Source: Escherichia phage moha. From it: DNA of 64,000 nt. The stretch is from the sequence record MN850590.1. The stretch is one strand, 5' to 3'. This document shows, piece by piece, positions 31,468-35,045 of the stretch. Below the pieces are notes generated by a model, which saw nothing but the letters and a program-made list of their open reading frames with translations, was not told the origin of the DNA and did not search any database. Each line of letters begins with the position of its first letter. Positions within the stretch are counted from its first letter, which is position 1. Both the position numbers and the translations under genes were made by a program.

Positions 31468-31941
31468 ATGTTATTATCTGGCAAATTATACAAAGAAGAA
31501 AAACAAAAATTTTATGATGCACAGAATGGTAAGTGTCCTATTTGCCACCGTGAATTAGACTCTGATGTTCAAGGTAACCATCTTGACCACGACCACGAAT
31601 TAAACGGGCCAAAAGCCGGTAGAGTTCGTGGATTACTCTGTAATCTGTGCAACGCAGCAGAAGGCCAAATGAAGCATAAGTTCAATCGTTCCGGTCTTAA
31701 AGGACGTGATGTTGACTACCTCGAATGGCTTGAAGCTCTTCTTGCTTATTTGAAACAAGATTATTCTGATAATAATATCCATCCTAATTTTGTTCCAGAC
31801 AAAACTAAAGAGTTCTCAAGACTAGGTAAAGAGGAAATGATGGCTGAGATGCTTCAAAGAGGATTTGAATATAATGAATCTGACACCAAAACACAGTTAA
31901 TAGCTTCATTTAAGAAGCAACTTAGAAAGAGTTTAAAATGA
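31468..31941 (+). CDS. 49: endonuclease VII (Holliday junction resolvase) gp49
   Basis: 157 aa; CPICHREL..HLDHDHELNG...CNLCN zinc/His-Me region as in T4 endo VII. Confidence 0.9.
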   Translation: MLLSGKLYKEEKQKFYDAQNGKCPICHRELDSDVQGNHLDHDHELNGPKAGRVRGLLCNLCNAAEGQMKHKFNRSGLKGRDVDYLEWLEALLAYLKQDYSDNNIHPNFVPDKTKEFSRLGKEEMMAEMLQRGFEYNESDTKTQLIASFKKQLRKSLK

Positions 31942-33755
31942 CAATTGAAAAAGAAATTGAAGGATTGATTCATAAAACTAATAAAGACCTTTTAAACGAG
32001 AATGCTAATAAAGATTCTCGTGTTTTTCCAACTCAACGGGACCTTATGGCTGGTATTGTGTCTAAACACATTGCCAAAAATATGGTCCCGTCTTTTATTA
32101 TGAAAGCGCATGAAAGCGGAATTATCCATTTCCACGATATTGATTATTCCCCTGCTCTTCCGTTTACTAATTGCTGTTTAGTCGATTTAAAGGGGATGCT
32201 TGAGAACGGATTTAAATTAGGCAATGCTCAAATTGAAACGCCTAAATCGATTGGTGTTGCTACTGCAATTATGGCACAAATTACTGCACAAGTTGCTTCC
32301 CATCAATACGGCGGAACGACTTTTGCTAATGTAGATAAAGTACTTTCTCCTTATGTTAAACGCACCTATGCAAAACATATTGAGGATGCAGAAAAATGGC
32401 AAATCGCTGATGCGTTGAATTATGCTCAATCTAAAACAGAAAAAGATGTATACGATGCATTCCAAGCTTATGAATATGAAGTAAATACTCTTTTTAGTTC
32501 AAACGGGCAAACGCCTTTTGTAACAATTACATTTGGTACGGGAACTGACTGGACTGAACGAATGATTCAGAAAGCAATTCTGAAAAATCGTATTAAAGGT
32601 CTTGGTCGTGATGGGATAACTCCTATTTTTCCTAAACTTGTTATGTTTGTTGAAGAAGGTGTTAATCTTTATAAAGATGATCCAAACTATGATATTAAAC
32701 AACTTGCGTTAGAATGTGCAAGCAAAAGAATGTATCCTGACATTATTTCGGTTAAGAATAATAAAGCTATTACCGGCTCATCTATTCCTGTTTCTCCAAT
32801 GGGTTGTCGTAGTTTCTTGAGCGTATGGAAAGATTCGACTGGTAATGAAATTCTTGATGGACGTAATAATCTTGGTGTTGTAACACTGAATCTTCCTCGT
32901 ATCGCATTAGATTCTTATATTGGAACCCAGTTCAATGAACAGAAATTTGTTGAATTATTCAATGAACGAATGGATTTATGTTTTGAAGCATTGATGTGCA
33001 GAATTAGTTCCTTAAAAGGAGTTAAAGCGACTGTTGCTCCTATTCTTTACCAAGAAGGTGCATTCGGGGTTCGTCTTAAACCTGATGACGACATAATTGA
33101 GTTATTTAAAAACGGTAGAAGTTCAGTGTCTTTAGGGTACATTGGTATTCACGAATTGAATATTCTTGTCGGTCGTGATATTGGGCAAGAAATTTTAACT
33201 AAAATGAATGCTCATCTTAAGCAGTGGACCGAAAGAACTGGATTTGCTTTTAGTTTATATTCTACTCCTGCTGAAAACCTTTGTTATCGCTTCTGTAAAC
33301 TCGATACAGAAAAATATGGAAGCGTAAAAGATGTTACTGATAAAGGCTGGTACACTAATAGTTTCCATGTTTCAGTAGAAGAAAATATTACTCCGTTTGA
33401 AAAGATTTCTCGTGAAGCGCCATATCATTTCATTGCGACAGGTGGTCACATTTCTTACGTTGAACTTCCTGATATGAAAAATAACCTAAAAGGTCTTGAG
33501 GCCGTGTGGGATTATGCTGCACAACATTTAGATTATTTTGGTGTTAATATGCCAGTAGATAAATGTTTTACATGCGGAAGTACCCATGAAATGACTCCTA
33601 CTGAAAACGGATTTGTTTGTTCTATTTGTGGAGAAACTGATCCTAAAAAGATGAACACAATAAGAAGAACATGCGGATATCTTGGAACTCCTAGCGTTGT
33701 TCCATGGAATTTAGGTAAAATGAAAGAAATGGTAAAACGAGTAAAACATGCATAG
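31938..33755 (+). CDS. nrdD: anaerobic ribonucleoside-triphosphate reductase NrdD
   Basis: 605 aa, uninterrupted; C-terminal glycyl radical motif RRTCGYLG and Cys cluster CFTCG..CSICG. Confidence 0.95.
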   Translation: MTIEKEIEGLIHKTNKDLLNENANKDSRVFPTQRDLMAGIVSKHIAKNMVPSFIMKAHESGIIHFHDIDYSPALPFTNCCLVDLKGMLENGFKLGNAQIETPKSIGVATAIMAQITAQVASHQYGGTTFANVDKVLSPYVKRTYAKHIEDAEKWQIADALNYAQSKTEKDVYDAFQAYEYEVNTLFSSNGQTPFVTITFGTGTDWTERMIQKAILKNRIKGLGRDGITPIFPKLVMFVEEGVNLYKDDPNYDIKQLALECASKRMYPDIISVKNNKAITGSSIPVSPMGCRSFLSVWKDSTGNEILDGRNNLGVVTLNLPRIALDSYIGTQFNEQKFVELFNERMDLCFEALMCRISSLKGVKATVAPILYQEGAFGVRLKPDDDIIELFKNGRSSVSLGYIGIHELNILVGRDIGQEILTKMNAHLKQWTERTGFAFSLYSTPAENLCYRFCKLDTEKYGSVKDVTDKGWYTNSFHVSVEENITPFEKISREAPYHFIATGGHISYVELPDMKNNLKGLEAVWDYAAQHLDYFGVNMPVDKCFTCGSTHEMTPTENGFVCSICGETDPKKMNTIRRTCGYLGTPSVVPWNLGKMKEMVKRVKHA

Positions 33756-34578
33756 GTATTATATAATTTATAAAATAACAAATATAATTAATTCAAAGGA
33801 ATATATCGGTGCGCATAGCACCGATAACATAAATGACGGTTATATGGGGTCAGGAACATTGATTCGTGCCGCTTTATTAAAATATGGTAGAAAAAATTTT
33901 AATAAAGAAATTTTACATGTTTTTGATAATGAAAAACAAATGTATGATAAAGAAGCTGAACTTGTAACCGAAGAGTATTGTCTAAAAGAAAATACATATA
34001 ATATTAAACCTGGTGGAAAAGGTGGAACTGCCTATGAACAGACACTTGAACATCGCCGTAAAAATAGTTTAGCAAATAAAGGTAAAAAGAGAACAGAAGA
34101 AACTAAAATAGCTATTTCACGTGCTTTAAAGAAATATAAACGTACGCCAGAGCATCAAGCAAATTTAAATAAAGCCGTAAGCATAGCTATGAAGCGAAAA
34201 GATGTTAGAAGTAAATTAGCTGGAGAGCGGTCTGAGAAAGATAAATTATCTATATCAAACGGTGTTAAAAAATATTACAATTCTTTGAGTGAAGAAGAAC
34301 GCGAACTTCATCGCAAGCGAATTATTGAAGGTAAAAAGAATTCTCCCATGTCATTGGAATCTAGACAAAAGCTTTCAAAAGCTTTAAAAGGGCTTCAAGT
34401 TGGTTCAAAAAATCCAATGTATGGAAAAATTTCTCCAACTAGCAAAACCGTTTCAGTTGACGGTATTAAATATGATTCAATTAAAAAGTGCTCAAATGCC
34501 ATAAAAGTTTCTAGACATCTTATACTAAAACGCTGTAATTCTACTGATGAAGCTTGGAAAAATTGGATATTATTATGA
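33748..34578 (+). CDS. free-standing GIY-YIG homing endonuclease (Seg-like)
   Basis: 276 aa; IIY..(10)..YIGAHS GIY-YIG motif; repeated basic helix motifs in C-terminal half; overlaps nrdD stop by 8 nt. Confidence 0.85.
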   Translation: MHRYYIIYKITNIINSKEYIGAHSTDNINDGYMGSGTLIRAALLKYGRKNFNKEILHVFDNEKQMYDKEAELVTEEYCLKENTYNIKPGGKGGTAYEQTLEHRRKNSLANKGKKRTEETKIAISRALKKYKRTPEHQANLNKAVSIAMKRKDVRSKLAGERSEKDKLSISNGVKKYYNSLSEEERELHRKRIIEGKKNSPMSLESRQKLSKALKGLQVGSKNPMYGKISPTSKTVSVDGIKYDSIKKCSNAIKVSRHLILKRCNSTDEAWKNWILL

Positions 34579-35045
34579 ATTATGATAGATTTTATCCTTG
34601 CGATTTTGTGAATGGCCCTGGTTGCAGGGTCGTTCTTTTCGTTACAGGTTGTTTGCATAAATGCGAAGGGTGTTATAATAAATCAACATGGAATGCTAGA
34701 AATGGTATTCCATTCACCGGAGAGACACTAGAACAATTAATTGAATGTTTGAATAATGATTATATAGAAGGATTGACTATAACCGGAGGTGACCCTCTCT
34801 ATCCTGATAACAGAGATGTGATTCACTCTGTGGTTCAAACTATTAAAAATCTTTATCCCAATAAAAGCATTTGGCTGTGGACAGGATATAAGTTTGAAGA
34901 TATTAAACAGCTAGAAATGCTTAAATATGTTGATGTTATTATTGATGGGAAGTATGAGAAAAATCTTCCGACTAAAAAGCTGTGGCGAGGATCAGATAAT
35001 CAGCGACTTTGGTCAAATACCGATGGGGTGTGGAAACATGATTAA
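34575..35045 (+). CDS. nrdG: anaerobic RNR activating enzyme NrdG (radical SAM)
   Basis: 156 aa from ATG 34575; CLHKCEGC cluster motif. Confidence 0.9.
   Translation: MNYDRFYPCDFVNGPGCRVVLFVTGCLHKCEGCYNKSTWNARNGIPFTGETLEQLIECLNNDYIEGLTITGGDPLYPDNRDVIHSVVQTIKNLYPNKSIWLWTGYKFEDIKQLEMLKYVDVIIDGKYEKNLPTKKLWRGSDNQRLWSNTDGVWKHD

Follow-up and report, generated by a model that had tools for sequence, protein, structure and literature searches.

The Seg proteins, SegH included, share an intronless homing lifestyle according to the T4 review PMC2988022, and the title of the paper by Sandegren, Nord and Sjöberg (2005; NAR 33:6203), as cited there, calls SegH a homing endonuclease whose gene replaces mobC. 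The segH genes of phages RB3, T6, LZ2 and U5 occupy the same nrdD/nrdG position as the open reading frame (ORF) described here and do so in the same orientation, with the same 8-nt and 4-nt overlaps and the same recoded nrdD tail. SegH reportedly cleaves DNA and is proficient in homing, and it is said to cut both segH-carrying and segH-less DNA. In T4, the same slot is filled in the same orientation by mobC, which also overlaps nrdG. MobC, however, is an HNH protein (PF01844), that is, a member of a nuclease family unrelated to SegH, and its first codons repeat those with which nrdG begins (MNYDR). In the records seen, mobC and segH were mutually exclusive.

At the DNA level, segH is 68-69% identical over its first ~270 nt to segB of T4 and the homologues of segB, whereas the C-terminal regions are unrelated at that level. 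The sites differ as well, that of SegB being the tRNA region, while the site and presumed target of segH is nrdD/nrdG. The similarity of T4 SegG to SegH was not detectable by BLASTP. Among proteins of known structure, comparison was made with I-TevI, the endonuclease of the T4 td intron (PDB entries 1LN0 and 1MK0 for the catalytic domain, 1I3J and 1T2T for the DNA-binding domain). The identity between the two amounts to ~25%; unlike I-TevI, SegH is free-standing, shows no evident zinc finger and possesses a much longer NUMOD3-like helical array.

The segH gene and its neighbours

The window analysed here, a stretch of 64,000 nt of Escherichia phage moha (MN850590.1), contains an ORF between nrdD and nrdG (Table 1), the product of which is identical to SegH of RB3 in 276 of 276 residues (GenBank ABI48949.1, record AY262138.2) and to SegH of T6 in 270 of 276 (98%; ABI48947.1). 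In the short GenBank records of RB3 (AY262138.2), T6 (AY262137.2) and LZ2 (AY262139.2), this ORF is flanked by partial nrdD and nrdG genes and annotated as 'SegH, homing endonuclease', and PHROG 314 ('homing endonuclease') matches the window protein with an E-value of 2.4e-60. The region is also 96.6-97.7% identical to that of many T-even phages, where the ORF is labelled 'segH', 'homing endonuclease' or 'segD'. The ORF is very probably segH, the free-standing and intron-less gene for a GIY-YIG homing endonuclease of T-even phages, lodged within the nrdD-nrdG operon as a cassette that lacks a promoter of its own. The first-pass annotation had proposed a free-standing GIY-YIG homing endonuclease from the letters of the DNA, and this proposal is borne out by the identity to RB3 SegH together with a fold and an architecture of the I-TevI type. 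The element in this slot is not a new one, SegH having been named and characterised before. The putative activity and cleavage site of SegH are taken here from the title of the 2005 paper and the GenBank annotation. That the element already had a name and a characterisation had been missed in the earlier reading.

Table 1. Coordinates of the features of the nrdD-segH-nrdG region in the window.
Feature	Position	Strand	Remarks
nrdD, anaerobic ribonucleotide reductase large subunit	31938..33755	+	single ORF, 605 aa, upstream neighbour of segH
segH-linked variant 3' end of nrdD	33681..33755	+	left edge of mobile cassette
16-nt insertion GGTAAAACGAGTAAAA relative to the empty allele	33731..33746	+	junction alignment of window, T2, T4, BEU50
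10-mer CATGCATAGG, common to the empty allele	33747..33756	+	junction alignment
segH coding sequence	33748..34578	+	ATG start, 276 aa plus stop
GIY-YIG catalytic domain, aa 1-96	33748..34035	+	Y8, Y19, G21, E69, N85
NUMOD3-like helical repeat linker, aa 98-228	34039..34431	+	Pfam NUMOD3 3.1e-8
C-terminal I-TevI-type helix-turn-helix DNA-binding domain, aa 226-273	34423..34566	+	
nrdG, activase	34575..35045	+	Fer4_12 7e-49; right edge of cassette

Both overlaps described for the 276-aa ORF in the first-pass annotation are present in the sequence. The segH ATG (33748-33750) overlaps the end of nrdD, with its stop codon TAG at 33753-33755, by 8 nt, and the segH TGA (34576-34578) reaches into the nrdG start as ATGA. 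The start of nrdG was taken as the ATG at 34575-34577, in line with T2, T6 and RB3, where an ATG overlapping the preceding stop is annotated. The TTG at 34554 only marks the longest ORF in mechanical terms. The product of nrdG also matches the Pfam model Radical_SAM. The product of nrdD is matched by Pfam NRDD from end to end (1.5e-171) and by Gly_radical (7e-25), and nrdD is, as had been claimed, uninterrupted. Since it forms one ORF, it is devoid of the I-TevII intron found in T4, JK45, N2, SP21535 and LH2. The gene for endonuclease VII precedes nrdD, which gives the gene order of T-even phages (49-nrdD-X-nrdG), here with nrdD free of an intron.

The dN/dS ratio between segH of the window and the 94.5% identical copy of LH2 is 0.10, indicating that the protein is under purifying selection. 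In phage sutha, segH is frameshifted, a 4-nt insertion splitting the ORF; such a split is an expected decay stage of a homing element.

Domain architecture of SegH

SegH has the GIY-YIG alpha/beta fold, in which the GIY...YIG motif takes the form IIY8...Y19-I-G21, with Y8, Y19 and G21 invariant in 30 homologues. The best match among the GIY-YIG models is Pfam SegE_GIY-YIG. When the single SegH sequence was used, the curated GIY-YIG models scored below their cut-offs (PF19835, 18.6 versus 25 bits; PF01541, 8.7 versus 22.6 bits), and so did NCBIfam TIGR01453 over residues 7-274 (50.2 bits, cut-off 56.05) and the Pfam I-TevI DNA-binding domain; a model cut-off, however, is a detection threshold and not a defining property of the GIY-YIG family. 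SegH homologues at 33-65% identity carry precomputed matches to PF01541 or PF19835.

Searches of PDB sequences with either the single protein or a 30-sequence profile led to no significant match, and the link to I-TevI was therefore drawn from fold comparison and hhalign. The latter aligned the SegH family profile with T4 I-TevI at 94.7% probability (E 6e-8), bringing Y8, Y19, G21 and N85 of SegH into line with Y6, Y17, G19 and N90 of I-TevI. The invariant E69 of SegH was placed one column off E75 of I-TevI, and the stretch containing I-TevI Arg27 was gapped in this alignment.

The I-TevI-like modular build is found in SegH, a NUMOD3 linker being followed by a C-terminal I-TevI-type helix-turn-helix. 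The repeated C-terminal DNA-binding-like motifs noticed in the first-pass annotation proved to be real: the NUMOD3 match reaches 3e-8, with its best stretch at residues 200-228 and three stretches detected at the relaxed threshold of E<=10, and the structure model of the linker contains seven helices (residues 100-109, 117-129, 134-149, 151-158, 163-179, 182-198 and 203-213). This linker is presumed to track the DNA minor groove.

Occupancy of the nrdD-nrdG slot and the edges of the cassette

The nrdD/nrdG flanks were matched by ~890 records of the phage collection, among which the slot between the two genes was found in three states, namely with segH, with mobC or empty. The gene segH is present in some 70 records (69-72) and the HNH gene mobC in 32, while in most of the remaining ones nrdD and nrdG abut directly with an ATGA overlap and the span is 823 bp shorter (for example, T2, G8, RB51, RB69 and RB32). 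Klebsiella phage Roth04 harbours yet other ORFs at this position. The comparison of the junction across related phages, which the first-pass annotation had called for, thus revealed a strong presence/absence polymorphism, with the nearest relatives of the window on the empty side, and not the conservation in all relatives that had been named as speaking against a mobile element. The presence of the nrdD intron with I-TevII is independent of that of segH: both are present in N2, SP21535 and LH2, the intron only in JK45, and segH only in the window, T6 and C2-3.

Upstream of ~33680, the window contains ordinary nrdD in comparison with empty-site phages. The variant 3' end of the gene that follows is 97-100% identical to segH-carrying phages and 64-66% identical to phages with an empty or mobC-filled slot. 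Over its 75 nt, 0-2 mismatches were counted against RB3, N2, SP21535, T6 and C2-3, versus 17-18 against WFbE185, JK45, T2 and G8, and the first 42 nt (33681-33722) contain 17-18 substitutions, amino-acid changes among them (NPNERGF to TPSVVPW). The nrdD tail of the window encodes ...GTPSVVPWNLGKMKEMVKRVKHA before the stop, that of empty-site phages ...GNPNERGFNLGKNKEIMHRVKHQ. The recoded tail was found in 80 phage records, and hybrid junctions that combine mobC with a nrdD tail of the segH type were found in 8.

The BLAST homology to WFbE185 and JK45 stops at 33730, immediately ahead of the 16-nt insertion. This insertion shifts the nrdD frame, with the result that the gene ends in ...VKRVKHA-TAG and its length of 605 aa is kept. 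In the empty allele, the ATG-CAT-AGG of the shared 10-mer is read as the nrdD codons M-H-R, which are followed by V-K-H-Q and the stop; in the window, it serves as the segH start M-H-R, and the other frame supplies the nrdD stop TAG. The C-termini of nrdD are similar in the two alleles (KEMVKRVKHA in the window, KEIMHRVKHQ in the empty allele). The body of segH (33757-34574) stands in for 11 nt of the empty allele, and the resulting arithmetic (16 + 818 - 11 = 823) equals the observed 823-bp difference in span. The same 10-mer, CATGCATAGG, is the switch point in the hybrid records, where the recoded tail is followed by a relic of the ancestral tail and mobC. The reuse of the nrdD M-H-R codons as the segH start, together with a frame-restoring insertion of 16 nt, may be an undescribed detail of the way in which nrdD is preserved.

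The closest genomes to the window over 25 kb are those of JK45, JK36 and WFbE185 (~97%), and the junction is empty in JK45 and WFbE185. Homology to these two is broken over 33681..34574 and resumes exactly at the nrdG ATG (34575), at 98.2-98.8% identity. The block in between shows only 0-3 nt differences from RB3, N2 and SP21535, which diverge from the window by 8-38 nt per 150 in their downstream flanks, and is 99.6-99.8% identical to segH carriers with far more diverged flanks on that side. From 34975 on, the window has 0-3 mismatches per 150 nt against JK45/WFbE185, versus 4-38 against N2/SP21535/T6/C2-3-type phages; the short record of RB3 does not extend this far. The cassette therefore has a history different from that of the surrounding genome, and its edges are sharp. 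This pattern of block versus flanks is the prediction of homing into an empty site. A longer co-conversion tract into nrdD upstream of 33681 was not detectable, as mismatches per 150 nt fail to separate segH-carrying from empty-site phages there. In its background, segH of the window differs from the reference SegH phages, since the genome is of the JK45/WFbE185 type, phages that normally have an empty site.

On the other side of the insertion, most segH-carrying phages differ by 10-16 linked substitutions over the first ~50 nt of nrdG, among them a codon change from D to C. Such a segH-linked nrdG head is present at the SegH loci of RB3, T6 and N2, whereas in the window and in C2-3 nrdG begins with 50 nt of the T2 version, as at empty sites. 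Of the records examined, C2-3 is the only one to share exactly this combination of segH and an empty-type nrdG head; TH58 and LZ2, whose nrdG heads were not inspected, come next by overall identity across the segH/nrdG joint. In an empty genome, both segH-linked clusters would together span ~125 bp, beginning ~75 nt ahead of the nrdG ATG and ending ~50 nt past it. Because substitutions linked to segH are concentrated to the left and to the right of the insertion point, the nrdD-nrdG junction of phages without segH, proposed in the first-pass annotation, is plausible as the target of SegH, and the ~125-bp span could plausibly correspond to the footprint of a long I-TevI-like enzyme. The cleavage sites of free-standing endonucleases can, according to the review PMC2988022, lie hundreds of bp from the gene, and a more distant SegH site is thus possible too. 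If the nrdG head belongs to the SegH target, the phage of the window may carry a self-cleavable site.

That the window captures a recent cross-lineage homing event, in which an RB3-type segH cassette entered a JK45/WFbE185-type genome with the conversion tract ending exactly at the nrdG ATG, is a tentative reading and seems rather doubtful. Should it be true, the window and WFbE185 would make up a near-isogenic natural system for mapping the target determinants of SegH and the immunity substitutions. Near-isogenic empty-site relatives provide ready-made substrates for mapping SegH specificity. The segH gene represents here an ordinary but clean, textbook case of intronless homing, in a slot contested by the unrelated endonucleases SegH and MobC, and its importance beyond annotation is slight. 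Mildly new are only three comparative points, namely the origin of the segH start codon in the nrdD tail, the hybrids of recoded tail and mobC, and the unusual position of segH beside an empty-site nrdG head.

Homing, expression and alternative readings

Judging from what is known of seg genes, SegH would, in a mixed infection, cut both DNA strands of a co-infecting segH-less phage at the nrdD/nrdG junction or close to it, and recombinational repair would use the segH-carrying genome as the template from which segH is copied along with the variant nrdD tail linked to it. The function of the host genes would be kept because the nrdD C-terminus supplied by the cassette is recoded but unchanged in length, and because the ATGA coupling to nrdG is retained. 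The gene would be translated from the nrdD transcript, starting from an ATG placed 8 nt before the nrdD stop and served by a weak GAG Shine-Dalgarno sequence, and its expression is probably low. Neither an exact T4 late promoter (TATAAATA) nor a good MotA box was found directly upstream of segH. Good signals occur no closer than 31850, where a MotA-type site precedes nrdD, and 31431, where a late promoter precedes gene 49; the + strand has a single sigma-70-like site, located within nrdG. The fold of 33715-33840 (z = -1.9) shows no RNA structure over the segH start, the stable hairpin being located downstream of the start codon. A promoter-less cassette, an overlapping ORF and coupled translation at a low level constitute the pattern given for segC, segF, mobA and mobC in the review PMC2988022, and the predicted expression layout of segH fits this promoter-less, overlapping-ORF pattern of the T4 free-standing endonucleases.

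Homing may, on the other hand, be only part of the reason for which segH is kept. The gene could benefit the phage by excluding the nrdD-nrdG alleles of competitors (marker exclusion) or through local recombination or amplification, an explanation that we hold to be possible yet unlikely. The purifying selection on SegH (dN/dS 0.10) is compatible with it, but would be expected equally of an element that is actively homing. The position of the cassette coincides with a mosaic boundary, where JK45-like and RB3-like sequence meet, as is described generally for phage nucleases in the title of PMC10448857; T-even SegB is reported in PMC13096335 to promote the amplification of anti-defence loci, and PMC2988022 links seg genes to T2 marker exclusion. 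However, the sequence bears no sign of a benefit to the host of segH, most relatives manage without the gene, and a frameshifted copy of it exists.

A mobile segH, which remains the preferred reading, also has to be set against a non-mobile passenger that is inactive or has no susceptible targets left and is inherited vertically. T4 does carry defunct endonuclease genes, such as I-TevIII (Table 1 of PMC2988022), and the equivalent of Arg27 was not found in SegH, the respective stretch of the hhalign alignment being gapped. Yet the ORF of the window is intact, identical to the reference SegH and under purifying selection; the absence of segH from the nearest genomes and the sharp edges of the cassette argue for recent lateral acquisition, and empty target sites are abundant in related phages. 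A passenger is thus very improbable. Of even lower probability, close to nil, is the view that the ORF encodes a group I intron endonuclease and belongs to an intron of nrdD or nrdG, although the best NCBIfam match, TIGR01453, is named 'group I intron endonuclease' and some records are labelled in this way (KAW3E185). This view was rejected, since the ORFs of nrdD and nrdG are each complete and overlap segH at its two ends, and since only the 16-nt insertion separates the nrdD homology from the segH start, too short a distance to accommodate intron RNA. In relatives, the genuine nrdD intron with I-TevII is situated ~1.3 kb upstream; the window does not contain it. As regards naming, the label 'segD', which appears in the genome records of RB3, RB5, RB6, RB7, RB9 and RB10, is a mislabel, the proper name of the gene being segH.

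Hybrid junctions and the mobC insertion

The first five codons of T4 mobC (ATGAATTATGACAGA, encoding MNYDR) are the same as those of nrdG; hence, the start of nrdG was duplicated by the insertion of mobC. segH, in contrast, reuses codons of the nrdD tail, and the two endonuclease genes thus represent differing solutions. A recoded nrdD tail of the segH type is also present in eight records (seven phages) that harbour mobC rather than segH. The order in these records is segH-type tail, ancestral-tail relic (ATGCATAGGGTTAAACACCAATGA), mobC, with the shared 10-mer CATGCATAGG, which encodes M-H-R of nrdD in the empty allele and contains the segH start in the window, serving as the switch point between recoded tail and relic. 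Such junctions are either segH/mobC recombinants or preserve the tail in its pre-segH state.

Features of the nrdD/nrdG junction in the window and in the corresponding regions of other phages (L-numbers)
Feature	Source	Coordinates
nrdD without intron	window	31938-33755
9-bp inverted repeat	window	33804-33826
Terminator-like hairpin	window	34610-34635
Repeated MNYDR start codons	T4 (L002)	1953-1975 and 2575-2597
segH broken into two ORFs	sutha (L005)	1946-2780
Recoded tail with mobC	BEU50 (L006)	1895-2015
Recoded tail with mobC	SHFML-11 (L015)	
Recoded tail with mobC	ELT1, BCPEco_001, BCPShso_001, BCPSen_003, 215Ecol030PP	
222-aa ORF in place of nrdD	FL18 (L017)	1909-2577
DUF7415 ORF and 278-aa "endonuclease"	Klebsiella phage Roth04 (L007)	1913-2954

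Decay and alternative occupants of the slot

The segH of phage sutha is a copy of the element in decay, in which four inserted nucleotides (ATAA) at around codon 28 break the reading frame in two. The 222-aa ORF of FL18 resembles SegG at its N-terminus (KTPPYYYIGSK) and contains a NUMOD3 motif. It is joined in frame to the end of the recoded nrdD tail (final ~22 codons), after which come intact segH and nrdG. In this phage a second seg-like gene appears to have displaced nrdD, leaving the phage without it. The ORFs found at the junction of Roth04, where the "endonuclease" yields only a weak I-HmuI NUMOD-like match, would constitute a third type of occupant.

Hairpins, gene naming and the nrdD intron

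The perfect inverted repeat TATCGGTGC / GCACCGATA (loop of 5 nt) falls within the segH codons of the YIG motif (EYIGAHSTD) and forms the sole stable hairpin of the mRNA's 5' region, leaving the start codon uncovered. The terminator-like hairpin, which has 11 pairs and precedes TTTTCGTT, is located in the 5' coding region of nrdG, 35 nt past the ATG. Since T2, an empty-site phage, has the same hairpin sequence, it lies outside the segH cassette.

In the genome records of RB3, RB5, RB6, RB7, RB9 and RB10 (KM606994-KM606999 and NC_025419) segH is labelled "segD", and RB3 record AY262138.2 names the same gene segH. The former label is probably a propagated mis-annotation, because segD of T4 has genes 23 and 24 as its neighbours.

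A group I intron with I-TevII interrupts nrdD in JK45 (L019), a close relative of the window, but the window's own nrdD lacks it. Several segH carriers also possess this intron (N2, L009; SP21535, L008; and LH2, L011); the intron in nrdD and the adjoining segH are two mobile elements that assort independently.
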